Positions 305 through 62,283 are shown, counted from the stretch's first letter. The stretch: 64,000 nucleotides of DNA from a phage (PZ386969.1); one strand, 5' to 3'. The notes: generated by a model not told the origin, from the sequence alone. Numbers and translations: made by a program.

Positions 305-330
305 TTCAATAAACCAAAGGGGGATATAAT
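305..330 (+). promoter_or_regulatory. Promoter-like motif TTCAATAAA-N11-TATAAT; the -10 lies in the loop of hairpin AGGGGGA/TCCCCCT
   Basis: TTCAAT 305-310, TATAAT 325-330, inverted repeat 318-324/331-337; about 30 nt upstream of ATG 367. Confidence 0.5.
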
Positions 331-366
331 TCCCCCTGTTAACCCTTTGACAAACAGGTGATTGAA

Positions 367-708
367 ATGAAACTCAATAAGATTCTTCTGGTGTGCGCTC
401 TGGCTTTCTCTACCACTGCGTGTTCCACCCTTCTGGACGTTGCGTCTACTGTAGACCTTGACGCGCCGACGTTCACCAATGAGCAGGCTGTGTCCAAGAT
501 GGAAGACACCATTAAGGCGCATGCGGCGTTGGATAACGCCACCCCAGGTCCGCTCCAAACTGTCTGCAACTATGACGATTCCATCCAGGAAGACGAAACT
601 TACCACTGCATCACCTACGTGAAGCAGGCCTCCGTCGTTCTGTATGCAGATTGTACCGAAGAACAGTGTGTTGCTACAGGCTACGATAAAGTTGAGGAAG
701 ACAAATGA
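367..708 (+). CDS. Putative lipoprotein
   Basis: ATG at 367 preceded by AGGTGA; N-terminal hydrophobic signal ending in a lipobox-like ...STTAC; track start 358 is a GTG in the same frame. Confidence 0.55.
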   Translation: MKLNKILLVCALAFSTTACSTLLDVASTVDLDAPTFTNEQAVSKMEDTIKAHAALDNATPGPLQTVCNYDDSIQEDETYHCITYVKQASVVLYADCTEEQCVATGYDKVEEDK

Positions 709-1484
709 ACAACCTGGTTTGTATCTATGATATGAAATCAAAGGTCGGTGGCCTGTATCGCGTCCTCGTGGATGTTGACCTGACGTTGGTCGACAGCCTC
801 TCCCCTTGGGTGCAGTGGTTTAACGAAGAGAACATCGCCGCCGCTGCTATCGCTACGGGGGAACATAAGTCATACCAGTTCCAGCCGATTACCAAAGAGT
901 GTTATATGTCCCATGCTGGCGACCTGGCTATTCTGATGCGTGAACGTGCGCATCCGGCGTGGCTATACCATGAAGTCCAATTGGGGATGCACAAACAACG
1001 TGTGCCAAGCGGTAACGATCCTATGGACTGGTGGCGTCGCCCTGACTTGTACGCCAAGATGAACCCGCTCCCCGGCGCTTACGAGTTCCTGGTAAATCTG
1101 AAGGATATCTTGCTTGAAGATTTCGACAATGTTGAATTCATCGCAGTGTCCAAGTGCGAGCCGGAACACGAGCGCAGCAAGCGTCAGTTTGTCTATGACA
1201 AGTTCCCTGGTATCTTCAACGGGTTTGTCAGCACCGACGAAAAGCATCTGCTGGCTGGCGATGTCCTGATTGATGACAATCCGAAGTATGTCGAGCCGTG
1301 CGGCCTGAACAACATCTTTGTCATCTTTGTTCCTCAGGGCAATTATGAAAAACTGGATCTTTCGAATTCGGAAGACATGCTTTATATTAAACCAGTAGAA
1401 GGCCAGAATCACTTCGACTTCCTGAATTACAATATTGTTGAAGTGGTTAACCGCCTGATTAGTCATTATCAATACGTCCGATAG
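705..1484 (+). CDS. HAD-superfamily phosphatase (5'-nucleotidase / polynucleotide 3'-phosphatase-like)
   Basis: DxDxT motif (VDVDLTLVD) near N-terminus and downstream GDVLIDDN motif typical of HAD phosphatases; ATGA start/stop overlap with upstream gene. Confidence 0.6.
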   Translation: MNNLVCIYDMKSKVGGLYRVLVDVDLTLVDSLSPWVQWFNEENIAAAAIATGEHKSYQFQPITKECYMSHAGDLAILMRERAHPAWLYHEVQLGMHKQRVPSGNDPMDWWRRPDLYAKMNPLPGAYEFLVNLKDILLEDFDNVEFIAVSKCEPEHERSKRQFVYDKFPGIFNGFVSTDEKHLLAGDVLIDDNPKYVEPCGLNNIFVIFVPQGNYEKLDLSNSEDMLYIKPVEGQNHFDFLNYNIVEVVNRLISHYQYVR

Positions 1485-1493
1485 GAGGACATC

Positions 1494-2704: not shown

Positions 2705-2706
2705 TC

Positions 2707-2904: not shown

Positions 2905-3278
2905 AAATTCAAATCCCTCGCGATGCTGTGGCTGTTGCGATTGACTACACCGGAAACGCCAAGCACATTACTGCCGTGCGCCTGATTCCTGAAAAGAACT
3001 GCGTCATCCCTCAGTTCCAGCTGAATGCCAATCCGTCGTCCAAAGACTTCGGTAAGTGGTTGCAGGCTGCTCCGTTCCGTACCCAGACGAATGCCCAGAT
3101 GTTCATCTCGGGTAAGACCCACACTGTAGCCCGTCTTTGGTTTGTGACCGCCGACCGCCGCTTCATCGATATGTGGGAACGTCCGATGGGGTTCGTGAAG
3201 CCGGAAGATATTCAGCTGGCTCCTGAGCCTGAAGCTGTGGCTCCTGAAGAGGAAGCGAAAGATGCATCATTTATCTAA
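2901..3278 (+). CDS. Hypothetical protein
   Basis: ATG at 2901 in ATGA overlap with previous stop, preceded by AGGAA; same frame as track ORF 2766. Confidence 0.45.
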   Translation: MKIQIPRDAVAVAIDYTGNAKHITAVRLIPEKNCVIPQFQLNANPSSKDFGKWLQAAPFRTQTNAQMFISGKTHTVARLWFVTADRRFIDMWERPMGFVKPEDIQLAPEPEAVAPEEEAKDASFI

Positions 3279-4500
3279 AATGCCGACGGGTTATACGCCT
3301 CCGGCTGAATGGAAGTACCCGATTGACCTGGCTGTTGATTATCGCAAGCCTGAGAATCGCATGTACCTGCTCAAGGCTTGGGTGGAGGCGCTGTCCTACA
3401 CAGAAGAGCACAACCAGCAGATGCGTCTGATGGACTATGCGATCGAAGTCACTGAAGGCATCAGCCTCGAACAGAAAGTCGAGCGCAAGATCTGGATGGC
3501 ATTCCTGTGGGGTTGTTGCTATAACGCCGTCGGACCGTGGACGATCTACAGTGAGTTCCCTGTGCCGCCTCAGTCTAAGGAAGAGATGCAGCGCTTCTCT
3601 GATTGGTATAATCTGAACTTTGAACGCATGCGATTCGATACCGACTGTCGCTACCGCAAGTCCAAGATGATTCCGTGTGTTCAGTCCTATATTGACTGGC
3701 TGGCTGGCCGTACTCAATATGACGCTTTCCGTGGGATGTTGGTGTGCATCGATAAGACAGAACAATTCACCCAGCTGTGGGACACGGCGATGTCCTGGAA
3801 ATACTTCGGTCGCCTGAGCGCCTGGAACTTCCTGGAAGCCCTGAACATGGTCTTCGGGAACGAATACACCATTGACGTCCCTGGCTTCATGCTGCGTGAT
3901 CGTGATGGAAGCGAGTCCAACCGTAATGGCGCGGCGTTCTTGTCCAACCGTGACGATTGGGTGACTAAACACGGGAAGAAAAAGATCAACGGTTGTCCTA
4001 TCACGGATGAAGAGTGTGACATCCTTGAGGCCGACCTTGAGCAGGCGTTCCAGGATTGTGTGGCTGAGTTCGGGCACCTGACGTTCATCAACCGCCTGAA
4101 CTTTGAAACCTCCGGTGCTTGTTGGCTGAAGAAATTCTTCCGACTGAAGAATACCCGTTACATCGGGTGGGACGCAGAGCGTACCTGGGATGAGATAGAC
4201 TACATGGAACGCGTCTGGCCTGAATACTCCTGCGCAGCGCTCTGGGAAGCCCGTTCGCTCTGGCTGCCAGATACCCTGTTATGTGAAAAGGCTCCTGCAG
4301 GGCACGTTCCAGGCGTCCAGAAGTGGAAGATGCCTGTATTCTTTGAGACTGGTGTTCCTCTGCATATCTGGCACCTGCAAAAGGGTACGCGCTGGGAACC
4401 ATCCGAGGTATGTACGAACCTGAAGATGCCTGTGCGCAAGGTTGAGGACAAGCAGCCGCGCAAACATAGCGTCAACCTCATGACACTCTTGAAACGCTGA
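3262..4500 (+). CDS. Hypothetical protein (412 aa)
   Basis: Long ORF, start preceded by GAGGAAG; no family recognised by eye. Confidence 0.6.
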   Translation: MHHLSKMPTGYTPPAEWKYPIDLAVDYRKPENRMYLLKAWVEALSYTEEHNQQMRLMDYAIEVTEGISLEQKVERKIWMAFLWGCCYNAVGPWTIYSEFPVPPQSKEEMQRFSDWYNLNFERMRFDTDCRYRKSKMIPCVQSYIDWLAGRTQYDAFRGMLVCIDKTEQFTQLWDTAMSWKYFGRLSAWNFLEALNMVFGNEYTIDVPGFMLRDRDGSESNRNGAAFLSNRDDWVTKHGKKKINGCPITDEECDILEADLEQAFQDCVAEFGHLTFINRLNFETSGACWLKKFFRLKNTRYIGWDAERTWDEIDYMERVWPEYSCAALWEARSLWLPDTLLCEKAPAGHVPGVQKWKMPVFFETGVPLHIWHLQKGTRWEPSEVCTNLKMPVRKVEDKQPRKHSVNLMTLLKR

Positions 4501-4508: not shown

Positions 4509-4536
4509 TCCTCGCCTATAAAGTGAGGATATTATC

Positions 4537-4704
4537 ATGTTACAAGATCTGTTGGTGTACGCGCTTCCTGGCGTTGTTGTCGGTTTCGTAGCTGGTGCTC
4601 TGGTCTTCCGTAAACACGCGCAAGACGGTGAAGTGATTGTTCAGAAGGGTAAGGACATCCTGGAACAAATCGAAGCCAAGCTGGAAGAGCTGAAGAAAAA
4701 GTAA
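4537..4704 (+). CDS. Small membrane protein (55 aa, not in ORF track)
   Basis: ATG 4537 to TAA 4702-4704 translated by hand: hydrophobic N-terminus then charged coiled tail; below the track size cut-off. Confidence 0.35.
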   Translation: MLQDLLVYALPGVVVGFVAGALVFRKHAQDGEVIVQKGKDILEQIEAKLEELKKK

Positions 4705-4724
4705 TCTGACTGCGGATTGCGTTC

Positions 4725-4750
4725 TTCAATAAAGGGGAATGGGTTAATAT
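4725..4750 (+). promoter_or_regulatory. Promoter-like motif TTCAATAAA-N11-TAATAT overlapping terminator hairpin
   Basis: TTCAAT 4725-4730, -10-like 4745-4750 in loop of hairpin 4734-4763. Confidence 0.45.
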
Positions 4751-4772
4751 TAGCCCGTTCCCCTTTCTTTTT
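4734..4772 (+). terminator. Rho-independent terminator
   Basis: 10-bp stem GGGGAATGGG/CCCGTTCCCC (one G-U) followed by TTTCTTTTT. Confidence 0.6.
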
Positions 4773-4786
4773 GCAAGGATTGATTT

Positions 4787-4978
4787 ATGACACCTCAATA
4801 CAAAATATTGGTCACCAGCCGTTGTTATGCTTATGGACAGGGTGAAGCAATATCAGTACACACAGTTGTAGTTGATTTTGAAAACAAAGAACAAGCAGAT
4901 TTGGCATTCTATAATATGCAGCAGAGCACAGCTCCTGCCGATATTGGCGTTAAACAAGTTTATACGAAATTATACTGA
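4787..4978 (+). CDS. Hypothetical protein
   Basis: ORF following terminator/promoter element. Confidence 0.4.
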   Translation: MTPQYKILVTSRCYAYGQGEAISVHTVVVDFENKEQADLAFYNMQQSTAPADIGVKQVYTKLY

Positions 4979-4989
4979 GGTCCTATATC

Positions 4990-7709: not shown

Positions 7710-7735
7710 TTCAATAAAAGGGGATAGGGTATTAT
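7710..7735 (+). promoter_or_regulatory. Promoter-like motif TTCAATAAA-N11-TATTAT overlapping terminator hairpin
   Basis: TTCAAT 7710-7715, -10-like 7730-7735. Confidence 0.45.
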
Positions 7736-7751
7736 TGCTCTATCCCTTTTT
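7720..7751 (+). terminator. Rho-independent terminator
   Basis: Stem GGGATAG/CTATCCC with A-tract upstream and T-tract downstream. Confidence 0.55.
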
Positions 7752-8968: not shown

Positions 8969-8976
8969 TCTGAACA

Positions 8977-8999
8977 AAGCCCTCAGCCGAGGGCTTTTT
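8977..8999 (+). terminator. Rho-independent terminator
   Basis: Stem GCCCTC/GAGGGC loop AGCC followed by TTTTT. Confidence 0.65.
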
Positions 9000-9024
9000 C
9001 AATTGAAGACACCCACCGTATTAT
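8998..9024 (+). promoter_or_regulatory. Promoter-like motif TTCAAT-N15-TATTAT upstream of rIIA
   Basis: TTCAAT 8998-9003, TATTAT 9019-9024, about 50 nt upstream of ATG 9075. Confidence 0.4.
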
Positions 9025-9074
9025 ACCCACTCAACCAATATGTTCCCCTTTGACATTGATAGGATTTCTATACT

Positions 9075-15657: not shown

Positions 15658-15677
15658 AGAGGCTCCGGCCTCTTTTT
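15658..15677 (+). terminator. Rho-independent terminator
   Basis: Stem AGAGGC/GCCTCT loop TCCG followed by TTTT. Confidence 0.6.
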
Positions 15678-15695
15678 CATTTCCAGCATTTGGTG

Positions 15696-15701
15696 TATAA
15701 T
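15696..15701 (+). promoter_or_regulatory. Sigma70-type -10 element
   Basis: Exact TATAAT directly after the terminator; possible -35 TTTTCA 16 nt upstream. Confidence 0.35.
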
Positions 15702-15744
15702 GGAACCGTTCCCCATGAGCGGAACCTATCTGAGGATACACCAA

Positions 15745-16245
15745 ATGAAATCCATGGTCAAACGTAAAGTCGAAATCTCCCTGACTGCCCATATTGAAAT
15801 GGTCCAACAACTTATCCTGGATGCGTATGAAATCCAGAAAGATCGCCAATCGAGGGGAGGTGTGACGGACCCCACCTGTCCTGGAAACATACTGTACTAT
15901 CGCATGCTGCGCCAGACTGGGCACACCGCCGCGCTGAAGAAGATTCTGTCCTATGATTTCCAGACAGAGAACAACCTCAACATCATGGGTGTCTTCCATA
16001 GCGTTAGTGAACGCGATTCTTTCTTCCGCTCCCGAGCAGGCGCGGATGTATCATTGCCCGATGTAGACAAGAAACAGCACACGACAACCATCTCCCATTA
16101 CATGGGCACGGGCATCGATAAAGCAAATATCATCGTGTTCTCTGATACGTTGCATGACCCCAAGCGCCTTGCATCTGCGCATGAAATGCTGCGGGAAGGT
16201 CGCAGCGCCCTCACTAATTTGACTTTAGTAGTGTTTCTGGGCTAG
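15745..16245 (+). CDS. Hypothetical protein
   Basis: Start taken at ATG 15745 (GAGGA upstream) because track start 15700 overlaps the TATAAT; start uncertain. Confidence 0.45.
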   Translation: MKSMVKRKVEISLTAHIEMVQQLILDAYEIQKDRQSRGGVTDPTCPGNILYYRMLRQTGHTAALKKILSYDFQTENNLNIMGVFHSVSERDSFFRSRAGADVSLPDVDKKQHTTTISHYMGTGIDKANIIVFSDTLHDPKRLASAHEMLREGRSALTNLTLVVFLG

Positions 16246-17650: not shown

Positions 17651-19561
17651 ATGTCCAACAAAATTGATATTGAACGCAAGTACAAGAAGCTCACTCACGT
17701 TGAGCATATCCTACTCCGCCCAGAGCGTCATCTGGGCAGTATTCGTTCGTCTGTGGGGACGGTGTGGGTGTATGACCCAACTAAGGACAAAGTCATCTTC
17801 CGTGACAACTTTGAGTACTCCCCCGCGCTGATCAAACAGTTTGATGAAATCATCACCAACTGTGTTGACCACAGCAAGACCCCTGAGGGCAAATCCCTGA
17901 CGGAAATCACCGTCACAGTTTCCCCTATGAACGGTCAAATCATCGTTGCTGACAACGGGGGTATCCCTGTGGTCAAGCATGGCGTCACCAACGAGTGGCT
18001 TCCTGAAATGTTGTTCGGCTCTCTATATGCGGGATCGAACTTCAACGACGAAGACGAAGAGTACAACAACCAGAAGTCCGGTGGTCAGAATGGCGAAGGG
18101 GCGTCCCTCGTCAACGTGTTCTCCAAATGGTTCCGCGTCACGACTAATGACGGCAAGAAGTCTTATACTCAGACGTTTGAAGACAACATGAGCAAGAAAT
18201 CTAACCCAGTCATCAGCAACGTGAACAGTCCTGGCACATCCATCGCCTGGATCCCTGACTATGCTCGTCTGGGCGTCAAAGGACTTGACCAGAACAACCT
18301 GCTGATGATCTATCGCCGCGCGTTTGAAGTGGCTGCGTGTAACCCGCGCCTGAAGATTGTTCTCAACGGGAAGCAAATCCGGATTGACCGCTTTGGCCAC
18401 TTCGTTGATTACTTCCATGCTGGCTCGGCTGTTGACGAAACCGGGGATTGGTCTGTTGCTGTAGCCCCTTCATCCGGTACGTTCATGCACGCATCATACG
18501 TGAACTCTATTGCCACCCACATCGGTGGTCCTCACGTTGATTATGTTGCTGACCAGATCGTGGCAGCGATTCGTCCCCAGCTGGTGAAGAAGTTCAAGAC
18601 CGAACTGAAGCCAGCAATGATCAAGAACCACATGTCCTTGTTCATCGCTGCCGACATCAACAACCCGCGCTTTGACAGCCAGACCAAGGAGCGCATGACC
18701 ACTCCTGTCAGCCAGTTCGGTACGTCGTACAAGCCCAGTGATAAACTGATCCGCAAGGCGCTTGAGTTCGTTACGGCTGGTCTGAGCAAAGAACTGGCTT
18801 CCCTGCGCAATGAGCAGGATGATGCTGAGTTTGAAAAGGCCAAGAAGGACATCAGCAAGCGGGATTATCGTGAGATTGAGAAGTATTACCCGGCGACCGC
18901 CCGTGGTGACCGCAGCGGATGCTCCCTGTTGCTGACAGAGGGTGATAGTGCCTCCAATCCTATCCTGAACGCCCGCGACACCAAGAAGATCGGGTTGTTC
19001 CCGCTTCGTGGTAAGTTCATCAACTGCCTGAACGCCCCGCGCTCAAAGGTGATGAACAATGAAGAGTTCAAGAACCTGTGTACGATCCATGGCGGCGCAG
19101 TGCCAGGCCAGCCCCTTGATATCACCCGTTACCCACAGACTGTTGTGGCTACCGATGCGGACGATGACGGCATCCACATCCGTGGGTTGTTGATCACCCT
19201 GTATTGCACCTACTGGCCGGAGTATGTCCGTCAGGGCAGGCTGAAGCTCCTGCGCACCCCTTACATGCGTGTGTGGTGTGGTAAGGTGATGCATGAGTTC
19301 ATGAACAACGCCGAGTATGAGGAGTTCCTGAAGACGCCTGATGCCAAGAAGATCACGAAGAAGAAATATCTGAAAGGTCTTGGTGGTAACAGCACTGAAG
19401 ACTTCAAACGTATTCTAAACAACCTAGATGCGTATACTACGACGGTCACGCTGGACGATGGCTACCAACAGTCACTGAAGAATGGCTTCGGTGATGAGGC
19501 TGCCGATTACCGTAAAACCTGGTTTAGCGATGTTTGCCTGTTTGAAACTGAGGATGAATAA
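17651..19561 (+). CDS. DNA topoisomerase II large subunit (T4 gp39-like)
   Basis: GHKL ATPase-type N-terminus (NCVDHS, DNGGIPV) and TOPRIM-like region (LLLTEGDSA). Confidence 0.9.
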   Translation: MSNKIDIERKYKKLTHVEHILLRPERHLGSIRSSVGTVWVYDPTKDKVIFRDNFEYSPALIKQFDEIITNCVDHSKTPEGKSLTEITVTVSPMNGQIIVADNGGIPVVKHGVTNEWLPEMLFGSLYAGSNFNDEDEEYNNQKSGGQNGEGASLVNVFSKWFRVTTNDGKKSYTQTFEDNMSKKSNPVISNVNSPGTSIAWIPDYARLGVKGLDQNNLLMIYRRAFEVAACNPRLKIVLNGKQIRIDRFGHFVDYFHAGSAVDETGDWSVAVAPSSGTFMHASYVNSIATHIGGPHVDYVADQIVAAIRPQLVKKFKTELKPAMIKNHMSLFIAADINNPRFDSQTKERMTTPVSQFGTSYKPSDKLIRKALEFVTAGLSKELASLRNEQDDAEFEKAKKDISKRDYREIEKYYPATARGDRSGCSLLLTEGDSASNPILNARDTKKIGLFPLRGKFINCLNAPRSKVMNNEEFKNLCTIHGGAVPGQPLDITRYPQTVVATDADDDGIHIRGLLITLYCTYWPEYVRQGRLKLLRTPYMRVWCGKVMHEFMNNAEYEEFLKTPDAKKITKKKYLKGLGGNSTEDFKRILNNLDAYTTTVTLDDGYQQSLKNGFGDEAADYRKTWFSDVCLFETEDE

Positions 19562-19562
19562 G

Positions 19563-20894
19563 ATGGTTGCTAAGAGCATTACTGTAACGGACTTTGTCAA
19601 CACTGACCATAAGCAGTTTTCTGTGGTCAACAGCATCCGTCAAATCCCTCAGCTGATCGACAGCCTCAAGCCAAGCCAGCGCAAGATCCTTTTCGCTGCT
19701 CTTGAGTACAACAAGGAGGAGATTGTTGACCGCCTTGGTATGTTCGCCGCCGCTCGCACCAACTACAAGTCTGGTGGTGAGAACATGAGCGGCACTATCG
19801 TGAACATGGCTCAGGGGTTCCCAGGCACGAACAACATCCCGTACTTTGACCGCGATGGCCAGTTTGGTTCTATCATGGGGCGTGATGCTTCATCTGCCCG
19901 ATACATATCCGTCGCTGTATCTGACGTTATCCGCAAGATCTTCCGCAAGGAGGATGAGGGTATTTTGGAATACAACTACCTTGGTGAAGAAAGACTGGAG
20001 CCGAAGTTCTTTCTGCCCATCCTACCCATGTTCCTGGTGAATGGGATCAATGGTATCGGCACCGGATATTCCACCGACACCCCGTGTCATTGCGTTAAGT
20101 CCGTGCTGAATGCCCTGAGAGCGCTTCTCCGTGGCGAAGACCCGAAAGACTTAAAACCGTACTGGAACGGCTTCAAAGGAGAGACAGGCTATACTGAGGA
20201 AGGAAGAGCATACAGTCGCGGCATCTTCCGTCGCGTCAATGCCACGACCCTGCATATCACCGAAGTCCCAGTGGGTTGGTTTGCCAAGACCTATGAGACC
20301 AAGGTGTTGCTGCCTCTGTACAAGGCAGGTATCCTCACCGAGTACGCCAACGACACGACGGAAGATGGCTGGGATATCACGGTTGTGTTTAAGCGCGGCG
20401 AACTGTCCAAGCTGGATGATAATCAGGTTGAGCAGATGTTCAAGTTGTATTCAGCCAACAAGCCTGTTTGGACGGCCTGGGATGAAGACGGGGTCATTCA
20501 TCGTTATTCTGGTTGGCGGGATATGCTGCTGCCGTTCTTCAATTATCGCCTGTCACGGTATGAAGACCGTCGCCAGTATCTGTTGAAGGACATGGCAGAC
20601 AGGATCCGCAAGCTGGGTGACCGGGCGGTGTTCATTGAATGGGCGACGCGTGTTGATCTCCGCCAAAAGATTGACGTGCTGAAGTCTCTGTTCATGCAGG
20701 ACTACCCGGACTTTGGTGGTGATCTTGACGAGTTGTTCAAGATGCCTCTGTCGTCTATTACTCTGGATGCCCGTGAGCGCCTACTCAAGCAGATTGAGAA
20801 CCTTGAAGCACAGCACAAGGAATTAAGTAAGAAAGAGGACATCGATCTTTACACTGAAGACCTTGATGACCTTGAAAAGGCTCTTGGCCTATAA
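19563..20894 (+). CDS. DNA topoisomerase II medium subunit (T4 gp52-like)
   Basis: Follows the large subunit; start re-set to ATG 19563 after its stop; topo IIA breakage-reunion-like region. Confidence 0.8.
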   Translation: MVAKSITVTDFVNTDHKQFSVVNSIRQIPQLIDSLKPSQRKILFAALEYNKEEIVDRLGMFAAARTNYKSGGENMSGTIVNMAQGFPGTNNIPYFDRDGQFGSIMGRDASSARYISVAVSDVIRKIFRKEDEGILEYNYLGEERLEPKFFLPILPMFLVNGINGIGTGYSTDTPCHCVKSVLNALRALLRGEDPKDLKPYWNGFKGETGYTEEGRAYSRGIFRRVNATTLHITEVPVGWFAKTYETKVLLPLYKAGILTEYANDTTEDGWDITVVFKRGELSKLDDNQVEQMFKLYSANKPVWTAWDEDGVIHRYSGWRDMLLPFFNYRLSRYEDRRQYLLKDMADRIRKLGDRAVFIEWATRVDLRQKIDVLKSLFMQDYPDFGGDLDELFKMPLSSITLDARERLLKQIENLEAQHKELSKKEDIDLYTEDLDDLEKALGL

Positions 20895-20935
20895 CATCGG
20901 AGGGGTTCGCCCCTCCTCACCTGGAGGGTTGTGCT

Positions 20936-21223
20936 ATGTTCTATCTCCGTTCTGCAGCACCTGTGGTATTCATCATTATCCTATTTGATTTCTTGGTTCC
21001 TCGCTTTATCAAAGAAGAGGTAGCGTTTGGTCTCTATGGTGAGACGGAAGACCCAGAGGTCGATGAATATTACCCAATGTGCGCCCTGAAAGATATCGAG
21101 GAAGGGGAAGATGTTGCAATGGTCGGCACTATGCGTTCTTTCAACCTGTTCGGGCTTGCACTCTTTCCGAAACTGGTTGGTGAACTGCGCCCCTACGATC
21201 CTGAAGCCACTGTAGATGGTTGA
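20936..21223 (+). CDS. Hypothetical protein
   Basis: ORF with N-terminal hydrophobic segment. Confidence 0.4.
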   Translation: MFYLRSAAPVVFIIILFDFLVPRFIKEEVAFGLYGETEDPEVDEYYPMCALKDIEEGEDVAMVGTMRSFNLFGLALFPKLVGELRPYDPEATVDG

Positions 21224-21258
21224 TCATAACATAGCTTCTGAGCCCTAAACTTCTGTCT

Positions 21259-21480
21259 ATGGATGATTCCTTGTATTTTCATTGTCCTAGGTGTGATATG
21301 CTTCATCTATATCACATTAAGGGCGAAACCCAAGGTCCGATGTGGTCGTGGAACAACAATGTTATTGAGCCTACGTTCACACCGAGCCTGCTGGTGAATG
21401 CATCTGATCCAGCATCACGTTGCCATCTGTTCCTGACCGACGGCAAATACAATTCCTCGGCGACTGTTTCCACGATCTGA
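21259..21480 (+). CDS. Hypothetical protein
   Basis: ORF only. Confidence 0.3.
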   Translation: MDDSLYFHCPRCDMLHLYHIKGETQGPMWSWNNNVIEPTFTPSLLVNASDPASRCHLFLTDGKYNSSATVSTI

Positions 21481-21539
21481 AGAACCAGACAGTGGGTATG
21501 GTCGACATCCATGAACCTGAAATTTGGATTGAATAGATT

Positions 21540-27767: not shown

Positions 27768-27817
27768 AATCTAGTCCTAAATAGCCATAACACTCTATCT
27801 ATTTAAGGGCTGAGACC

Positions 27818-33603: not shown

Positions 33604-33826
33604 GATACTTGTCCGCTAATGTCTTGTAATATTTGTTAGGATTATACTCCTGTTTGGAATAGTGAAGAGTAAGGGAAGCACTCAGACCGAGGATAATCAC
33701 GACAACGAGCGCCTTGTGGTTATTGATCTCGGGAATAGCTATCCACACCAGCAGCATCACAAGCGAGCTGATAATCAAGGACAATAAGAACGTTAATGCA
33801 ATCACCAATGCGAATAGCTCGTCCAT
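33569..33826 (-). CDS. Small membrane protein
   Basis: Two hydrophobic helices. Confidence 0.4.
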   Translation of the reverse strand: MDELFALVIALTFLLSLIISSLVMLLVWIAIPEINNHKALVVVIILGLSASLTLHYSKQEYNPNKYYKTLADKYHEFKNERASGK

Positions 33827-37144: not shown

Positions 37145-37171
37145 GGTCTGTTCCTTCTGTAAGTTCCCATG

Positions 37172-37197
37172 TATTATATGGGTGAATAGTTTATTGA
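37172..37197 (-). promoter_or_regulatory. Promoter-like motif TTCAATAAA-N11-TATAAT (- strand)
   Basis: - strand TTCAAT at 37197-37192, TATAAT at 37177-37172, about 30 nt upstream of ATG 37144. Confidence 0.5.
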
Positions 37198-37374
37198 ATT
37201 ATTTGTTATGAAACCCAGAGCCTTGTGGACTTCTTCACGATTTTAATTTCGGCCTGAGCCTTTGTGCGATTAATCCGGCGCTCGCCATTCCATTTCAACA
37301 TCGATCGCATCTATCAGACAACGGATTTCGGTGCTCAGGGGCTTGCCAACAGCCAGTTGAAATACTTGCGCATG

Positions 37375-39686: not shown

Positions 39687-39718
39687 GATGTGCTCCTGGT
39701 TTACATTCAGATCATAGA

Positions 39719-39746
39719 ATTATACCCTATGACCCGCTTTATTGAA
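39719..39746 (-). promoter_or_regulatory. Promoter-like motif TTCAATAAA-N13-TATAAT (- strand), -10 in hairpin loop
   Basis: - strand TTCAAT 39746-39741, TATAAT 39724-39719, within TCATAG/CTATGA hairpin. Confidence 0.5.
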
Positions 39747-44221: not shown

Positions 44222-45264
44222 ACTACACCTTCCAGGAACTTAGGATCAACGATCTTGCGGTCAACCGGAGAATGGGTGAGCGCGGTGTTCAAGCCATGAT
44301 CCTGAATCAGGTCCAGGTTAATGAGCTTTTCGTTCAGTTTGCAGTGCAGACAGTACGCCATCTGTACAATCAGGCCGCGATCCGCATCGTATTCCTTCAG
44401 GTGAGCAACCACAGTTTCCCACGGGCTACCGATATCACAGTGATGAAGCACACCAGTGAACAGATTGCGGATATGGTTCTGGTTGGTCACGTTCGTGAAG
44501 TGGATCATGGAGTTGATGAACCCAGCTTCTACTTTGGTGTCCTTCGTGATCTTGCCCAGCTGCTTCTGGCTGACTTCATTGTTGTAGTAATGAAGATTGT
44601 TAGAGAATAGCTTGTACTGACCGACATCAACATCTAACACCCGAGCAATCACTTCCTGAAGAATAGAGAACTCAATGAAGTTGATTGAACTCATCCCCCA
44701 CAGAACATCCTGTGAGCGATTGATGACCGTCAGGTTCAGACGACCTTCAACGATGGCGAACAACAGAGCCAGGTTACACACCATGTCCTTAGTCTTTGCT
44801 TCGCCGCTCTCGCTGAACTTCGCCAGACCAGCATCCGAATCTAGAGCCGGGTCATAGATGGTGAGGTACGCCTGACGAGTGTTTGGGTTCTTGCGCAGGC
44901 GGTTGATAACGCTATCCAGCTGGCCATGGGCGTACAGACGCGGACCATAAGCAGCTCGCCATGTTACCCCATCATCCGAAAAGTTAGCAGCGCGAGGCAA
45001 TACGCGTGACAGGAACTTTATGTCGTTGCGGCCTGACAACACCCAGAAGGTCTCGCCGATGGCAGCGATAGCCGATGAGTTGCGACCTTCAACGGAGAGC
45101 CAGCGGTCACGAATATCGGAAACAGTGATAGTCACACCATCAAGGAAGCGGGTGCTATCAGTATTGATTTCAGCATTACCAGGATCAGATTCGATCCCGA
45201 ATTCACGGATAGCCAAGACAGCCTGCTTCAGCATGTCATTGTTGTTAATTGCTTTGATTTCCAT
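44218..45264 (-). CDS. Pyrimidine deoxynucleotide hydroxymethylase (ThyA superfamily, T4 gp42-like)
   Basis: ThyA-fold motifs RQAYLTIYDP and NRSQDV; catalytic Cys in MVCN context as in T4 dCMP hydroxymethylase (FMCTN), not the canonical PCH. Confidence 0.65.
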   Translation of the reverse strand: MEIKAINNNDMLKQAVLAIREFGIESDPGNAEINTDSTRFLDGVTITVSDIRDRWLSVEGRNSSAIAAIGETFWVLSGRNDIKFLSRVLPRAANFSDDGVTWRAAYGPRLYAHGQLDSVINRLRKNPNTRQAYLTIYDPALDSDAGLAKFSESGEAKTKDMVCNLALLFAIVEGRLNLTVINRSQDVLWGMSSINFIEFSILQEVIARVLDVDVGQYKLFSNNLHYYNNEVSQKQLGKITKDTKVEAGFINSMIHFTNVTNQNHIRNLFTGVLHHCDIGSPWETVVAHLKEYDADRGLIVQMAYCLHCKLNEKLINLDLIQDHGLNTALTHSPVDRKIVDPKFLEGVV

Positions 45265-45935
45265 CAGATACTCCCAAAATCACGACAGAGGAATGCCATC
45301 ACAGCCTGGTCTACCGTTAGGCCGTGAGACTTCATCATACCCGCAGCCACCGTAGGGAACAAGTCTTTATGTCGTTGACGATGGTCATGAACTCTCTCCC
45401 ACTTCTCGACCACCAGACTTTCATTGAAGTCCACACCGCCGTTACGTGATTTAACGCGGGTGATACACGTTTCAAGAGGAGTGTCCATAAAGAGCACAAC
45501 CAATTCACGTGGTGGGCGTGTCAGACGGGGGATCCAAGAACTCAATAATGTGGATGGAATGATACCTTCGAAAATCACATCATATTTCAAGTATTCTGGT
45601 TGGTCAGCAATAGACAACGCGAACAACATCTGCTCAGTGTCCTTCAGGGAATCAACCCCCTTGGACTTCGACTTGTCATATTTACCGATACAGACCACGT
45701 TGAACGAAGGACAGACAGTCAGCATGACCTTGCCATTATGGGTCACGACATACGCCTGAGGATCCCTCTCCGCCAGCTGAGACGGCACAGTGGATTTACC
45801 GCTACCATTGGAGCCTTTGACGTAGTAGATTTGCCCTCGTGCTGGGTAGATCCCCTTTACGACGGGTGGTTTAAAGAATGTGTGGACGGGGCGCTTCATC
45901 AACCCCTTCAGGGAGTAGGACATAAACTGCTCCAA
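45264..45935 (-). CDS. P-loop kinase-like protein
   Basis: Walker A YVKGSNGSGKST; several aligned blocks with the 1799-2704 protein. Confidence 0.55.
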   Translation of the reverse strand: MEQFMSYSLKGLMKRPVHTFFKPPVVKGIYPARGQIYYVKGSNGSGKSTVPSQLAERDPQAYVVTHNGKVMLTVCPSFNVVCIGKYDKSKSKGVDSLKDTEQMLFALSIADQPEYLKYDVIFEGIIPSTLLSSWIPRLTRPPRELVVLFMDTPLETCITRVKSRNGGVDFNESLVVEKWERVHDHRQRHKDLFPTVAAGMMKSHGLTVDQAVMAFLCRDFGSI

Positions 45936-45968
45936 TAAACAAAAGGAGCTGCTATTATAGCAGCCCCT
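45936..45968 (-). terminator. Rho-independent terminator (- strand)
   Basis: Stem GCTGCTAT/ATAGCAGC followed on the - strand by TTTTGTTTATTGG. Confidence 0.55.
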
Positions 45969-45997
45969 TCATCTTTTGAACAGTTTCTGAACTTAAA

Positions 45998-48840: not shown

Positions 48841-48851
48841 TTGTCAACTCC

Positions 48852-48859
48852 TATAAATA
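48852..48859 (+). promoter_or_regulatory. T4 late-promoter-like TATAAATA
   Basis: Exact TATAAATA 35 nt upstream of the GTG start of a tail-tube-fold gene. Confidence 0.45.
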
Positions 48860-48893
48860 ATAACAGTTATTTTATTTAAGTGGAGTCCTCACC

Positions 48894-50876: not shown

Positions 50877-50950
50877 TTCTTAATTTCCTCTGTTTCCGCC
50901 CCTCAGGGCTATTCTGTTACATGTATTTCAGTTTGCTACAAAGCGGGGTA

Positions 50951-50974
50951 ATTATACCCCGATCTTACATTGAA
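50951..50974 (-). promoter_or_regulatory. Promoter-like motif TTCAAT-N12-TATAAT (- strand), -10 in hairpin loop
   Basis: - strand TTCAAT 50974-50969, TATAAT 50956-50951, inside hairpin CGGGG/CCCCG (50944-50961). Confidence 0.45.
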
Positions 50975-51705: not shown

Positions 51706-52006
51706 GGAACACCCCCACGGTTGTCAGTACGAAACGCACCATAATGATAACCAGCAACATCACTGTAGAAAACACTACACGCTTGATCATTTTATCGCGC
51801 ATGTGGATGAACTGATATGAGAGGATAGCCTCGGCCTGTTGATCGGCACGAACGTTCGTGTCACGATGTGGGGACAGCGTGTAGAAGTTGATCTGGTACA
51901 CATACGCATGAACCAGAGTGAAGAACGACTTCACCCAGACCAAGACAACCACTAACAACAAAGCGAACGTCAGGAAGTTCGCCAACAACCAATAATCGAC
52001 CATCAT
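51692..52006 (-). CDS. Membrane protein
   Basis: Multiple hydrophobic helices. Confidence 0.4.
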   Translation of the reverse strand: MMVDYWLLANFLTFALLLVVVLVWVKSFFTLVHAYVYQINFYTLSPHRDTNVRADQQAEAILSYQFIHMRDKMIKRVVFSTVMLLVIIMVRFVLTTVGVFHAAV

Positions 52007-52593
52007 ATACCTCTGTTGAAGTCTGGATTATTCTCAATGAAGTAAGAGCCACAAGCCATTATCGCAAACGAATCCACGAGGTCATCGATTGGCTTAGGAT
52101 CCTTAACTTCCAACATATCCATTATACCGCGCATATTAACATTGAACAGCGACTCGAAGTGAGCGATCATGGCGTGTTTATCCGCGTTGCCCTTGTCGGT
52201 GAACATCTTCTTCACATGGGATGGCGTCACGATCTGGAAGTCGAAATTGTTACGGCGCAGGGCTTGCTTCAACAGTGAGGTATTCTCTGCGGTCTGGCAT
52301 ATGTTGTTGGAGTTCTTAGAGTTGCCCATAGCATACCCTTCAAGAGTGATCACATCCGGCTTCTCAGTCAACAGGACAGCCTCAGCCCATTTACAGATGT
52401 TATAGAAGCGTTCTTCTGGGGTCTCCCACTTCGGTTGCTTCATGATAAGGATATTCTGACGAATCTGAGTGCAGTACTTCTCCACAGTATAATATGCGTA
52501 GAAGCGCAGATGATCAAAATCAAGAGGGTCTTTGTCATCCCAGAAGCACAGGGATGGACAGCCATAGGAGTAGTCGATTCCGCAATATTTCAT
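52003..52593 (-). CDS. RuvC-like Holliday junction resolvase
   Basis: YCGIDYS N-terminus, ITLEGY and DDLVDSFAI acidic motifs. Confidence 0.45.
   Translation of the reverse strand: MKYCGIDYSYGCPSLCFWDDKDPLDFDHLRFYAYYTVEKYCTQIRQNILIMKQPKWETPEERFYNICKWAEAVLLTEKPDVITLEGYAMGNSKNSNNICQTAENTSLLKQALRRNNFDFQIVTPSHVKKMFTDKGNADKHAMIAHFESLFNVNMRGIMDMLEVKDPKPIDDLVDSFAIMACGSYFIENNPDFNRGI
52121..52146 (-). promoter_or_regulatory. Promoter-like motif TTCAAT-N14-TATAAT (- strand), internal to a coding region
   Basis: - strand TTCAAT 52146-52141, TATAAT 52126-52121, about 115 nt upstream of the next - strand gene start. Confidence 0.4.
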
Positions 52594-52644: not shown

Positions 52645-53154
52645 TTAACGGGTGATGATTTTGCTATCAGGTAGGATCAGACCAGGGTGGTCCAGGTTCT
52701 TCTGCATCTGTTGGATACTCTGCAGGATCACGGTAGTGTCGATGTGGCGTTTCACTTTGCGCGCTTCATCACCGTAGGAGATCTGTCCCTGAGGATCGAT
52801 GTAGTGGGCTGTCACAACCTGCAGATCATAACCACACTTGATCAGGTACTTAGCAATGTTGCTAACTTCGAGAGACAGGGACTCACCGTCCACACCGATG
52901 TTGGCTGAGTAGACGATTACGCCATTTTCTACTGCTTTTGGTTCAAACAAAACCATACCAGCGATCGTCTGGATCAAAGGAACTCCCTCTGTATCGAAAG
53001 CCACCTGATCGAACGCACCGATGAACTCATCCGGCACTTTACCTTCGGCATCAGAAACTGTGTGTTTCATAAGGTCCAGGACGTGTTGTTGTACTTCCTC
53101 AATCGGAGCACGTTCAACGGGTTTTTCGTTTTGCATTACTTTTCTCCAGTTCAT
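52645..53154 (-). CDS. Hypothetical protein
   Basis: Start uncertain; the track N-terminus overlaps the upstream gene, internal ATG 53154 chosen. Confidence 0.4.
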   Translation of the reverse strand: MNWRKVMQNEKPVERAPIEEVQQHVLDLMKHTVSDAEGKVPDEFIGAFDQVAFDTEGVPLIQTIAGMVLFEPKAVENGVIVYSANIGVDGESLSLEVSNIAKYLIKCGYDLQVVTAHYIDPQGQISYGDEARKVKRHIDTTVILQSIQQMQKNLDHPGLILPDSKIITR

Positions 53155-53644
53155 AATCGCGCTCCACAACGTATTGGTAGACACGCATCTTAATATAGTC
53201 AGCACTGCCTGCTGAAGACAGCACCATCCATCCACTACTAAGGGCATTCATCTTATATTGACCAACACCCTCTTGAAAATAACTTTTAATCTGTTCCAGC
53301 TTTCGCACACGATGATAATACGAGATGAGTTCGCCGATGACAATACAATCTGGATAATGCTTTTCCAATGTATTGATGTTGCGGTGAACATATACGGGTA
53401 GAACTTCTTCATCGTCGATAGGGCTGTAGTATGGGTCTACAATGACCACTTGTAGACCATAACGCAGCAGGTCTTTGACACCCAGCCGACAGAACTTATA
53501 ATCTTCGTGTTTCATTGCCACATGGAGGATATTCTCTTTCTTGGCATAATCAGTCAGGAAGATAAAGAAGTCTGTGTTGGGATCGGGATATTGTATAGAC
53601 AGTTCTTTGCCTATTTCACTAAAACAAAATCCGCGCATTTTCAT
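53114..53644 (-). CDS. Hypothetical protein
   Basis: ORF only. Confidence 0.45.
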   Translation of the reverse strand: MKMRGFCFSEIGKELSIQYPDPNTDFFIFLTDYAKKENILHVAMKHEDYKFCRLGVKDLLRYGLQVVIVDPYYSPIDDEEVLPVYVHRNINTLEKHYPDCIVIGELISYYHRVRKLEQIKSYFQEGVGQYKMNALSSGWMVLSSAGSADYIKMRVYQYVVERDYELEKSNAKRKTR

Positions 53645-57885: not shown

Positions 57886-57896
57886 GATATAGTTCC

Positions 57897-58157: not shown

Positions 58158-58202
58158 TTTGTGGCGAATGCCAATGAATTACTGGGAAGTATAAGCGCAG
58201 GG

Positions 58203-58236: not shown

Positions 58237-58242
58237 GGCTTG

Positions 58243-58467: not shown

Positions 58468-58476
58468 TTCTCACCT

Positions 58477-59580: not shown

Positions 59581-59581
59581 G

Positions 59582-59875
59582 TTATGCCTTGCCTTCGTGG
59601 AGTTTGATCTGTTCGGTGGTAATGTAATTCTTGATGTTAACAACAAAATCCCGGCGTTTGTCTGCAGGTAATTTGCTGAGGTCTAGAAGGATGTGAGTAC
59701 GGTTCACAGTATCCATTGGATCCGTGTAGTTCAACGGGATAGCCGTGACTTCGCCGCCGTTGTGCCAAGCAGTGGCCACCTTCACGTTGCGCAGAACATT
59801 CTCCGCTTCCATTTTGCTGTTGTGTTCGAGCAAGATACCTGGTTGGCCAGGGACTAACAATAACGTTTGGAACAT
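59582..59875 (-). CDS. Hypothetical protein between nrdA and nrdB
   Basis: ORF filling the nrdA-nrdB gap. Confidence 0.4.
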   Translation of the reverse strand: MFQTLLLVPGQPGILLEHNSKMEAENVLRNVKVATAWHNGGEVTAIPLNYTDPMDTVNRTHILLDLSKLPADKRRDFVVNIKNYITTEQIKLHEGKA

Positions 59876-59944
59876 ATAGAACTCCTGATGAATAGGGGTG
59901 ATCTCTCACCCCTGATGATATAACGGTAGTAGGTTTAGACCAAT

Positions 59945-62227
59945 TTATACAACACAGCTATCGCACTGAGTTTCCTCAGCCTGCTTCAGCTCTTCGTCTT
60001 CCTTGGCGTCCTTGTTTGTGTTGTAATACAGAGTCTTGCCACCCCACATATAGAACGACAGGATATCCTGCATCATCTTGGCGCGAGGGATCTTGCTGTC
60101 AGGGTACTTCTCTGGGTCATACCACGTGTTGGTACTGATGGACTGGTCAACCCAGCGCTGGATGACAGCAGCGGTCTTCAGGTACTCAATACAGTCCAGG
60201 TCCCACTTGAGGTCATACATCGGTCCAAGGGTCTCAACGTCCGGGACGACCTGCTTATAAGTGCCGTCCTTGCTACCCTTGATGCTCACCAAGCCCTTCG
60301 GTGGCTCAATGCCGTTCGTTGCGTTGAGGACCTGTGAGGAGCTTTCGGTAGGGGCTACTGCCAGCAGAGTGGCGTTGCGGATACCATAGGTCTTCAGATT
60401 ATCCTTCAACTCATCCCAATCCAGCCCGTATGCCATCCCTTCTGGCTTCTTGCCATTTGGTAGGATATCAAGTGGAAGCGGCTGAAGGTCGGCGGTGACC
60501 TGCCCATTATTGTGGATGGTTCTGCGTTTACACGCCCCGAACTTCATGGCCAGACGGTTGGACGCCTTGACCAGATAGAAGTGCAGGTGTGCCATCCACG
60601 CATCCAGCATTTCAAGACCAGCTGGTGAGCCATAGCCCGTGAAGTTCTTGGCCAGGAAGTGAGCCACATTCACGATACCAACACCCAGAGGACGATAGTC
60701 TTCAACAGCCTTGCGAGCCTGAATCGCTGGATAGTCCTGATATTCCAACAGCATGTCCAGCGCAGACACCAACACGAACGCCACGTCTTCCATTTCCGTA
60801 GGATCTTCGAACGCTGTCAGGTTGAAGGAAGCCAGGGTGCACAGAGCCACGCGCCCGTTTTCATCGTTGTACTGCTCAAACTCACGGGTCGGCAGGGCGA
60901 TTTCTAAACAAAGATTTGAAGAATAAATCGTGTCTAGGTTGAATGGACTGTATTCATTCATGTGATCGACAAATGCGATGTAGATGCGGCCTGTGTCTGA
61001 ACGCTGGTCTAACAGCATCTGGAACACCTCTTCTGCCTGCAACTTTTTAGCACGAACCAAACCAGCATCAGCGGCCTTGATCATGTTCTCATACAGAGTA
61101 CGGAACTTGTCAACGTCAGCGAAGTATGCTTCATACATTTCGCGGTTGTCTTTCGGGTCGAACAGATACAGAGGCTGCTTGGCAACAAGGCGCTCAAACA
61201 TCACGCGGTTGATCTGAATGCCATAGTCGATACGACGTTCGCGGTTTTCTTCAGTACCACGGTTGTTCTTCAGAACAACGACGTCATCGAACTGGTAATG
61301 CCACAGAGGGATGTACGCTGTTGCTGCACCACCACGAATGCCGCCCTGAGAGCACGATTTGAGTGCCCCAGTGAGATACTTGATGAACGGGATCAGGCCT
61401 GTGTGAACCATCTCTCCGCCGCGAATAGGACTACCAATCCCACGGATTGCCCCGACATCGAAGCCGATACCCGCACGTTTGGACACATAGTCAACGATGG
61501 TCTTGGCTGTTGCGTTGATAGAGTTCAGGGTGTCATCAGTCTTGATTAACACACAGGAACTGAACTGACGGGTAGGAGTACGAACACCTGCCATAATCGG
61601 GGTGGGAAGACTGAACTTGCCTGTGCTGGCATATTCATAGAACTTTTTCACCATCTCCAGGCGGCTGGCTTTGTCCCAGTTAGAGAACAACGCCATGGCG
61701 ATGCCCATGTACATGACCTGAGGGGTTTCGTAGAAGATCTTGCTGTCTTTCTTGGAACGGTCGCGCAACAGGTACTTCTCAGTCAGCTGACCCATGGCCG
61801 CCCACGTGAAGTTCTTATCGCGTTTGTGATTGATGACGTCGTTCAGCTCGTTGAACTCTTCGGTCGTGTAGAGATCAAGGAACTCACGATCATACACGCG
61901 CTGTTTGATGTTCTTGACGAAGATGTCCAGCAGGTGAGGCGGCTTGTACTGACCATAGACAGCCTTGCGCAGATCATACGACTTCAGACGAGCAGCCACA
62001 TACTGGTAATTGGGTTTGTCTACAGAGATCAGTGAAGCCGCAGCCTGGATGAGGATATCCTGAATGCGATCTGTTCTCATGTTGTCGGTGAACTGAATCT
62101 TAGATGCAGCGATCACCTCTGACATTGACACACCAGACAGGCCATCACATGCGCGGTCTACGACTGCGTGTAGTTTCTCAATATCAAATGGGACAGAAGA
62201 TCCGTCACGTTTTATAACGTTAATCAT
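59945..62227 (-). CDS. nrdA: Ribonucleotide reductase class Ia alpha subunit
   Basis: 760 aa; ATP-cone N-terminus (MINVIKRDGSSVPFDIEKL) and RNR large-subunit core. Confidence 0.9.
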   Translation of the reverse strand: MINVIKRDGSSVPFDIEKLHAVVDRACDGLSGVSMSEVIAASKIQFTDNMRTDRIQDILIQAAASLISVDKPNYQYVAARLKSYDLRKAVYGQYKPPHLLDIFVKNIKQRVYDREFLDLYTTEEFNELNDVINHKRDKNFTWAAMGQLTEKYLLRDRSKKDSKIFYETPQVMYMGIAMALFSNWDKASRLEMVKKFYEYASTGKFSLPTPIMAGVRTPTRQFSSCVLIKTDDTLNSINATAKTIVDYVSKRAGIGFDVGAIRGIGSPIRGGEMVHTGLIPFIKYLTGALKSCSQGGIRGGAATAYIPLWHYQFDDVVVLKNNRGTEENRERRIDYGIQINRVMFERLVAKQPLYLFDPKDNREMYEAYFADVDKFRTLYENMIKAADAGLVRAKKLQAEEVFQMLLDQRSDTGRIYIAFVDHMNEYSPFNLDTIYSSNLCLEIALPTREFEQYNDENGRVALCTLASFNLTAFEDPTEMEDVAFVLVSALDMLLEYQDYPAIQARKAVEDYRPLGVGIVNVAHFLAKNFTGYGSPAGLEMLDAWMAHLHFYLVKASNRLAMKFGACKRRTIHNNGQVTADLQPLPLDILPNGKKPEGMAYGLDWDELKDNLKTYGIRNATLLAVAPTESSSQVLNATNGIEPPKGLVSIKGSKDGTYKQVVPDVETLGPMYDLKWDLDCIEYLKTAAVIQRWVDQSISTNTWYDPEKYPDSKIPRAKMMQDILSFYMWGGKTLYYNTNKDAKEDEELKQAEETQCDSCVV

Positions 62228-62257
62228 GGTGTTCCTCGGGTTTGTTTACGCAGGTTT

Positions 62258-62283
62258 ATTATACGCCGCCCTCGTAGATTGAA
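62258..62283 (-). promoter_or_regulatory. Promoter-like motif TTCAAT-N14-TATAAT (- strand) upstream of nrdA
   Basis: - strand TTCAAT 62283-62278 in the loop of hairpin CGCCGCC/GGCGGCG, TATAAT 62263-62258, 30 nt upstream of ATG. Confidence 0.5.

Follow-up and report, generated by a model that had tools for sequence, protein, structure and literature searches.

A probable class of pre-replicative promoters carrying the TTCAAT[N14]TATAAT motif, interleaved with hairpins of the upstream transcripts, in an Agtrevirus-like phage

A recurrent promoter-like motif, in which a TTCAAT box is followed after 12-16 nt by TATAAT or a close variant of this hexamer, was analyzed in a stretch of 64,000 nucleotides of phage DNA (PZ386969.1; this whole stretch is termed the window). 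The sites are best explained, with a probability of about 0.8, as pre-replicative (early/middle) promoters that carry the TTCAAT[N14]TATAAT motif of the Ackermannviridae and are interleaved with separable hairpins of the transcripts arriving from upstream. All nine copies listed in a preliminary description of the window were found in place (305, 4725, 7710 and 8998 on the plus strand; 37198, 39746, 50974, 52146 and 62283 on the minus strand), and the described spacing of 12-16 nt to TATAAT or to a variant with one or two mismatches holds: TATAAT is exact at six of the nine sites and deviates at one or two positions at the others. Their location in front of genes was likewise borne out, as all nine share the strand of the next gene and the -10 hexamer ends 29-115 nt before its start; the box frequently adjoins the stop codon of the preceding gene (305, 37198, 50974). 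Three further sites were detected beyond the nine, at 45980 (-), 33666 (-) and 15676 (+).

Judged by its sequence, the window comes from an Agtrevirus-like phage and lies within the family Ackermannviridae: it is 95-98% identical to the Escherichia phages LHE287, YX22 and AV101 and ~90% identical to Shigella phage AG3, which is classified as Ackermannviridae; Aglimvirinae; Agtrevirus. For comparison the entire annotated AG3 genome was used together with the 10-kb flanks of the gp32, rIIA, gp41 and NrdA homologues from ~20 family members; the fetched flanks and AG3 together span nearly the entire window in several clades. The core motif is already known, since TTCAAT[N14]TATAAT is cited as a regulatory motif of the family: the publication on phage EspM4VN gives five complete copies and names it as one of “two unique regulatory motifs”, the other being CTAAATAcCcc (PMC7283392). 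The motif of the window agrees with this published signature promoter motif of the ViI-like (Ackermannviridae) phages in sequence, spacing and family, so that nothing essential differs; four exact N14 copies are present in the window, accompanied by exact N12 and N16 variants. It is said to have been described first by Adriaenssens et al. in 2012, in the proposal of the genus Viunalikevirus (Arch Virol 157:2035); it was not found in the genome papers of LIMEstone1, CBA120 and AG3. In earlier genome papers early/middle promoters were not identified (Kutter 2011; Anany 2011), 40 intergenic terminators were reported for AG3 (Anany 2011), and a 2024 review of the family nowhere mentions promoters and transcription. 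The regulatory features of the AG3 GenBank record leave the TTCAAT sites unmarked; the sole exception is a “minus_10_signal” at the orthologue of 45980. In the literature searched, neither a mechanism for the motif nor its overlap with hairpins was found.

The motif frequency is well above that expected from base composition. Exact TTCAAT-N12-16-TATAAT occurs six times in the window versus 0.06 expected copies, which corresponds to a 100-fold enrichment over dinucleotide-preserving shuffles, none of 100 shuffles reaching six. A scan of spacers from 8 to 22 revealed a sharp peak at 14 with small shoulders at 12, 15 and 16, all other spacers being near background: at N14 there were 4 exact matches, 9 with at most one mismatch and 22 with at most two mismatches, compared with expected values of 0.0, 0.29 and 4.5 (4.56 for the last class when computed with this spacer and tolerance). 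At the sigma-70-like spacer N17 the window contained no excess (0 exact matches; 0 with at most one mismatch versus 0.21 expected), and a generic sigma-70 promoter scan of the window showed no enrichment either (12 versus 9.4 and 23 versus 18.9 expected). The sequence TTCAATAAA is present six times in the window, 0.6 copies being expected. In AG3, four exact copies at N14 are joined by exact copies at N13, N15 and N16; nearly all AG3 matches with at most one mismatch are intergenic and lie 13-75 nt upstream of a gene on the same strand, in a genome that is 94% coding. The TTCAAT class is the dominant class of strong promoters, because 12 of the 17 exact intergenic TATAAT hexamers of AG3 are preceded by a TTCAAT-like box at N12-16 (TTGACA precedes only one of the 17, at N16). 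In a scan of viral contigs for TTCAATAA-N12-TATAAT, Ackermannviridae genomes had 2-3 copies each among the matches listed and single copies were found elsewhere; loci with multiple hits outside the Ackermannviridae, among the matches listed, were low in GC and accounted for by composition.

The profile of 32 non-orthologous N14 sites gave the consensus TTnTTCAATAA-N12-TATAAT. Its box carries C at -30 and A at -29 and -28, is extended by A at -26 (19/32) and -25 (20/32), and is preceded by T at -35 in 18 and at -34 in 20 of the 32 sites (~60%); the region from -16 to -13 is G-rich and T-poor, and that from -3 to -1 is C-rich. The box therewith spans -32 to -27, or -32 to -25 if taken as TTCAATAA, and is centered at -29.5. 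With canonical Escherichia coli sigma-70 promoters the sites share the perfect TATAAT, a frequent G at -14 to -16 and the T at -35/-34; in contrast, TTCAAT matches TTGACA at only three of six positions and is placed 14 bp from the -10 instead of 17 +/- 1. A reading of TTCAAT as a shifted -35 element was rejected, as the registers NNNTTC at 17 bp and NNTTCA at 16 bp retain only the T at -35 and -34.

In all clades sampled both boxes are kept while the flanks vary. By this conservation, seen at the 305, 39746, NrdA, rIIA and gp32 sites, both boxes are under selection as DNA elements, with a spacing that is fairly fixed per locus. On sequence grounds, the promoter identity of the sites is well supported by their orientation, their intergenic position, the cross-clade conservation of both boxes amid variable flanks and the perfect -10 of sigma-70 type. 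Downstream of the motif are rIIA, gp32, NrdA, the open reading frames (ORFs) after gp41 and gp43, the clamp loader, a gene for an HU-like protein and the region of tRNAs and small ORFs. The late structural genes gp4/gp48, gp2/gp54 and gp5 have (C/T)TAAATA 25-35 nt upstream and never the TTCAAT motif; the motif class precedes pre-replicative genes only. A promoter at the head of a transcription unit in AG3 (134996), divergent from gp6 and without a hairpin, belongs to the motif class as well. At least some copies must fire before any phage protein is made, because the motif is the only enriched class and includes this head-of-unit promoter.

The preliminary description had further placed the -10 hexamer, in at least five cases, in the loop or arm of a GC-rich inverted repeat resembling an intrinsic terminator. 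The stem was retrieved at 305, 4725, 7710, 39746 and 50974 and, weakly, at 37198; the resemblance to a terminator did not extend so far, as only 4725 and 7710 among the nine have a U-tail. A perfect stem (score >=10) encloses the -10 at ~22% of the sites (4 of 17 in the window, 6 of 28 in AG3), the corresponding figures being 1% for random positions and 8% for TATAAT hexamers in general, and fold z-scores range from -2.2 to -6.2 at eight sites. U-tails are present behind the hairpins of 4725, 7710 and 45980 as well as behind those that immediately precede 8998 and 15676; no U-tract follows the stems of 305, 37198, 39746, 50974 and 62283. The register of the hairpin varies: it is situated upstream of the box at 8998, 15676 and AG3 85060, around the box at 62283, around the -10 at 305, 4725, 7710, 39746, 45980, 50974 and AG3 90179, 101555 and 139510, and downstream of the -10 at AG3 93070, 88881 and 58428.

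Among the sites with the -10 inside the hairpin, the promoter directly after the stop codon of the gp43 DNA polymerase (305..330, +; box 305-310, N14, TATAAT 325-330) presents its -10 as the loop of the stem AGGGGGA/TCCCCCT at 318-337 (minimum free energy (MFE) -16.6 kcal/mol, z -2.2). It is nearly invariant in all clades, and in one genome, where another gene lies upstream, the homology starts exactly at TTCAAT. At the terminator-promoter composite 4725..4776 (+; box 4725-4730, N14), the -10-like TAATAT at 4745-4750, with two mismatches, is positioned in the loop of a hairpin of 16 pairs (4731-4766; MFE -25.9, z -5.3) that is followed by CTTTTTG and represents the top terminator call; the loop of the relatives has TATTAT. 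A second composite at 7710..7751 (+; box 7710-7715, N14) has TATTAT (7730-7735) in the loop of the hairpin 7716-7751, with a T-run behind it (MFE -24.0, z -6.2). The promoter after the gp41 helicase (39708..39746, -; box 39741-39746, N16, TATAAT 39719-39724) has its -10 in the loop of the hairpin 39708-39736 (MFE -14.2, z -2.7), and in all clades TTCAATA and GGTATAAT are retained at a spacer of 15-16. The additional site 45942..45980 (-), TTCAAA-N15-TATAAT with TTCAAT in AG3, carries a terminator of 13 pairs with the -10 in its loop (45942-45970; MFE -23.4, z -5.1), again a top call, followed by TGTTTATT; its 12 distinct orthologues include G.U intermediates on the sense strand. The gp32 promoter directly after a TAA stop (50944..50974, -; box 50969-50974, N12, TATAAT 50951-50956) is overlapped by the stem CGGGGTA/TACCCCG at 50944-50961 (MFE -15.0, z -3.1); the clades have TTCAAT, CTCAAT or ATCAAT as its box and N12 or N14 as its spacer, and its hairpin is lost in a Kuttervirus-like clade that keeps both boxes and remodelled in others. 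The promoter at 37166..37198 (-; box 37193-37198, N14, TATAAT 37173-37178), also directly after a TAA stop, has only the weak stem CCCAT/ATGGG at 37166-37182 (MFE -5.7, z -0.9) and occurs in Agtrevirus and one Kuttervirus-like lineage only; at the additional site 33641..33666 (-; TTCACT-N14-TATAAT), 38 nt upstream of a small ORF and kept in 9 distinct orthologues, a weak stem of 4-5 bp surrounds the -10.

At the remaining sites the hairpin is displaced or missing. The rIIA promoter (8976..9024, +; box 8998-9003, N15, TATTAT 9019-9024) follows a separate intrinsic terminator at 8976-8997 whose T-run merges into the box (MFE -14.4, z -3.7), so that the -10 lies outside the hairpin; comparison of the clades shows covariation in the terminator stem (GCCCTC, GCCCCT, GCCTCC) and a box that reads TTCAAT or TTCTAT, with N15 kept throughout. 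The same merging of an upstream terminator's T-run into the box was seen at the additional site 15676..15701 (+; TTCATT-N14-TATAAT), which is kept in 7 distinct orthologues. The NrdA promoter after PhoH (62258..62290, -; box 62278-62283, N14, TATAAT 62258-62263) has a hairpin (62264-62290; MFE -22.0, z -3.9) that encloses the TTCAAT box and not the -10, its 3' arm adjoining the latter; across clades both boxes are kept at N14-15. A doubtful member of the class is the exact N14 match at 52121..52146 (-), located inside a RuvC-like ORF (52003-52593) 115 nt before the next gene: no hairpin is present (z +1.9), and in other clades the box turns into TTCAAC by a synonymous change while GGTATAATG is invariant.

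According to the covariation analysis, these hairpins are real and under selection, apparently as structures of the sense transcript. At 39746, 96.6% of the cells are paired, three pairs are changed on both sides and none of 500 shuffles reaches the score; at 62283 the corresponding values are 100%, three pairs and 4 of 500 shuffles. The sense transcript is indicated by the non-Watson-Crick cells of the family hairpins, which comprise 35 G.U versus 5 A.C on the sense strand; as transcription is predicted to start downstream of the 5' arm, the hairpin must belong to the RNA of the preceding gene. Like intrinsic terminators, several elements combine GC-rich stems with U-tails (4725, 7710, 45980, upstream of 8998/15676) and covary on the sense strand; unlike them, many stems (305, 37198, 39746, 50974, 62283) lack the U-tract and overlap a promoter rather than standing alone. 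The proposal that termination and re-initiation share one element was therefore only partly sustained: the hairpins as such are selected, whereas the presence of U-tails at some sites only and the varying register argue for two separable functions packed together and not for one obligatorily coupled element.

In the mechanism that we favor, host sigma-70 RNA polymerase would be anchored by the near-perfect TATAAT and would start 6-9 nt downstream of it, the TTCAAT(AA) box at -32 to -25, 12 bp from the -10, standing in for the -35 element. Since the motif is the only abundant class and heads transcription units, its use by unaided polymerase seems somewhat more likely than a dependence on a phage-made activator; the box would then confer phage-specific strength or selectivity. 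The hairpins represent a second, separable function and are structures in the sense RNA of the preceding co-directional gene: those with a U-tail (4725, 7710, 45980, upstream of 8998 and 15676) are true intrinsic terminators, those without it probably act as attenuators or stems protecting the 3' end, and the A/T-rich -10 most often serves as a convenient loop. The interleaving of hairpin and promoter may be explained by the intergenic gaps of only ~55-110 nt. Several points weigh against this interpretation. The 14-bp spacing is too short for the normal contact of sigma-70 region 4 with a -35 element, and the strong conservation of the box is left unexplained if the polymerase acts unaided; the spacing varies between loci from N12 (gp32) to N16 (after gp41), a range wider than the +/- 1 of T4; the argument from the head of a transcription unit depends on one promoter; and a search of the literature on the family for mapped transcript 5' or 3' ends found none for any member. 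The phage DNA, moreover, carries hypermodified thymidines, which may affect the T-rich boxes: encoded in the window are 5-hmdU DNA kinase 2 (1799-2704, +; E 6e-151), an amino acid:DNA transferase of thymidine hypermodification (3262-4500, +; E 5e-60) and a 5-hmdU DNA kinase (45264-45935, -; E 2e-108), because of which the promoter boxes are probably chemically modified in virion DNA.

A serious alternative to unaided polymerase is a MotA-like factor, i.e. activator-dependent middle promoters at which a phage protein binds TTCAATAA at -30 and sigma-70 region 4 is remodelled or displaced in the manner of MotA/AsiA; we consider this possible, at clearly lower odds than the interpretation given above. 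T4 middle promoters combine a stringent sigma-70 -10 with the MotA box (a/t)(a/t)(a/t)TGCTTtA, which is centered at -30 at a distance of 12 +/- 1 bp to the -10; the genes under their control belong to replication, recombination and nucleotide metabolism or encode tRNAs and are also reached by read-through of early transcripts (Hinton 2010, PMC2988021). The placement of the box at the position of the MotA box, as suggested in the preliminary description, fits this rule even more closely than was claimed when the motif is written as TTCAATAA-N12-TATAAT: the box replaces the -35 element and at modal spacing lies 12 bp from the -10. The stringency of the -10 is similar; the downstream genes likewise function in replication, recombination and nucleotide metabolism or encode tRNAs; and the location of promoters just after or within terminators would provide the two T4-like routes of read-through from upstream and fresh initiation. 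In addition, a conserved box where sigma-70 cannot normally read implies another reader. On the other side, the box sequence TTCAATAA is unrelated to the TGCTT core of the T4 box, the class appears to be the sole pre-replicative class and not a second tier, so that no separate enriched early class is at hand to express the activator beforehand, and the head-of-unit promoter itself belongs to the motif class.

The activator proper was not detected at the sequence level. The expected MotA/AsiA-like protein was sought by phmmer in all ORFs of AG3 and of the window and none was found (Arn.3, as positive control, gave 1e-14). By tblastn against 50,697 phage records, MotA and AsiA each matched ~1,150 records (MotA 1143), which among the matches listed were T4-type genomes only, and their organism counts are inconsistent with the Ackermannviridae set. 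Both proteins were not identified in the ViI-like phage by Kutter 2011 either, and MotA, AsiA, Alt and ModA were noted as absent in the earlier genome papers (Kutter 2011; Anany 2011). In the window (19482-21950, +), the genes are arranged as gp52, small ORFs, Arn.3, which parallels 52, motA.1, motA, arn.4, arn.3 in T4; between gp52 and Arn.3, where T4 has motA, the window encodes no more than a membrane protein of 95 aa and one small ORF. When 40 uncharacterised window ORFs were scanned against Pfam and PHROG, no DNA-binding or anti-sigma domain was revealed, if ORF 39021-39335 (-) is set aside; the screen for other transcription factors covered ~40% of the genome and was made at the sequence level only. 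ORF 39021-39335 (-) encodes a conserved 104-aa protein, belongs to the operon transcribed from the 39746 promoter and matches phrog_639 “transcriptional regulator” (4e-31), besides a faint match to Pfam Phage_DsbA (E 0.074). Neither BLASTP nor hhalign revealed any similarity to T4 DsbA, and no sequence match was found in the PDB. Because of the faint Pfam match and the lack of T4 DsbA similarity and of a PDB sequence match, the ORF was rejected as evidence for an activator and is kept as a lead only. Its confident AlphaFold model (pLDDT 87.6) consists of a beta-hairpin, a 39-residue helix and three short helices, for which the PDB gave no significant neighbour. A more specific version, which we put forward tentatively and rate slightly below the general activator model, is that sigma appropriation in the Ackermannviridae may be analogous to that of T4 but non-homologous: a phage protein, perhaps virion-delivered or made from a few unaided promoters, would read TTCAATAA at -30 and redirect sigma-70 polymerase to hypermodified DNA, and the overlapping terminators would give each replication gene both read-through and fresh initiation. 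This would fit the geometry and the gene class; only MotA/AsiA homologues recognizable by sequence are ruled out, and the screen for other factors extended over ~40% of the genome.

Two other explanations address the hairpins and the motif itself. Promoter and hairpin might form one obligatorily coupled unit. Either the terminating polymerase would be passed directly to the overlapping promoter, or the -10 would be recognised in an extruded or structured form, as in the hairpin promoters of phage N4. The enclosure of the -10 in a loop or arm at about one fifth of the sites, against 1% of random positions, would agree with such a unit, as would the recurrence of the arrangement at many independent loci across the family and the compensatory changes that keep the stems while the loop TATAAT is invariant. 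It is nevertheless improbable: the hairpin changes its place relative to the box and the -10 from site to site, unlike at N4-type hairpin promoters, where it has a fixed position with respect to the start site and is required for recognition; conserved promoters exist without a stem at the -10 (8998, 62283, AG3 134996), and the gp32 promoter of the Kuttervirus-like clade preserves both boxes without the stem; most stems have no U-tail; and the asymmetry of G.U versus A.C points to RNA and not to a DNA cruciform. That the sites are no promoters at all but a by-product of A/T-rich terminator loops, base composition or coding constraints is very unlikely and already largely refuted by the enrichment, the N14 peak, the conservation and the survey of AG3 TATAAT hexamers. 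The doubtful site 52146, in a coding region and with a synonymously decaying box, would suit this explanation, and 4725 and 7710 are foremost good terminators with imperfect -10-like hexamers; however, the spacing of the two boxes is maintained also where they are not enclosed by a hairpin, TATAAT does not form the other terminator loops of the window, the co-orientation with genes is strict, and a search of the window for Rfam families gave no match.

Further elements were observed in the vicinity of the promoters. In the leaders downstream of the 305 and 8998 promoters, CCCTTTGA(C/A)A is present at 343-352 and 9046-9055 (+) and conserved in all clades; the copy of the 305 leader can form an alternative stem together with the G-run in the promoter spacer. 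A second conserved hairpin, GCCCTGAGGGGC, lies in the 5' leader of gp32 (~50898-50909, -), ~20 nt before the gp32 start, and covaries across clades (GCCCGAAGGGGC, GCCCCCTGGGGC, GCCGATGTCGGC, GCCTTATGGC); by analogy with the leader structure of T4 gene 32, it is a candidate autoregulatory operator. The composite at 4725 and the following 62-aa ORF (4700-4980, +) are near-identical (protein identity 100%) in genomes that share only 54% identity with the window in rIIA, which suggests that this small module may have been exchanged horizontally and recently. Within 52121-52146, the codons GGT ATA ATG, with the rare isoleucine codon ATA, are invariant in 15 of 15 orthologues and neighbouring third positions vary; despite the unconserved TTCAAT box, this hints at a possible -10 of an internal promoter for the downstream gene of a protein with two transmembrane segments. 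The gene behind the 15676 promoter (15700-16245, +) encodes an HU/histone-like DNA-binding protein (phrog_4164, E 3e-76). This protein is reminiscent of TF1, a protein of the hmU-containing phage SPO1 that binds to modified DNA at early promoters.

Promoters of other kinds are present as well. At 53475-53502 (+), a perfect sigma-70 consensus, TTGACA-N16-TATAAT with 12 of 12 matches, is conserved in AG3 and constitutes the sole canonical consensus among the strong -10 elements of the latter; it differs in kind from the TTCAAT class, runs antisense within an orf81-like ORF (53114-53644, -) and is directed toward the gp26 baseplate-hub gene. The late (C/T)TAAATA elements of gp4/gp48, gp2/gp54 and gp5 (27768-27817, 48841-48893 and ~54967) resemble the T4 late TATAAATA; the two divergent late pairs are separated by near-palindromic intergenic regions of ~50 nt with one element per strand.

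The control of early and middle transcription in ViI-like phages has been an acknowledged gap since 2011. The present analysis sharpens the question in three respects: one promoter class serves essentially all pre-replicative genes; it has the geometry of T4 middle promoters without detectable MotA and AsiA; and it is systematically interleaved with RNA hairpins of the upstream transcripts that are under selection. The question thereby becomes what reads TTCAATAA at -30 in a family with hypermodified thymidines. As these phages are widely used in biocontrol and engineering, defined promoter and terminator parts would also be of practical value.

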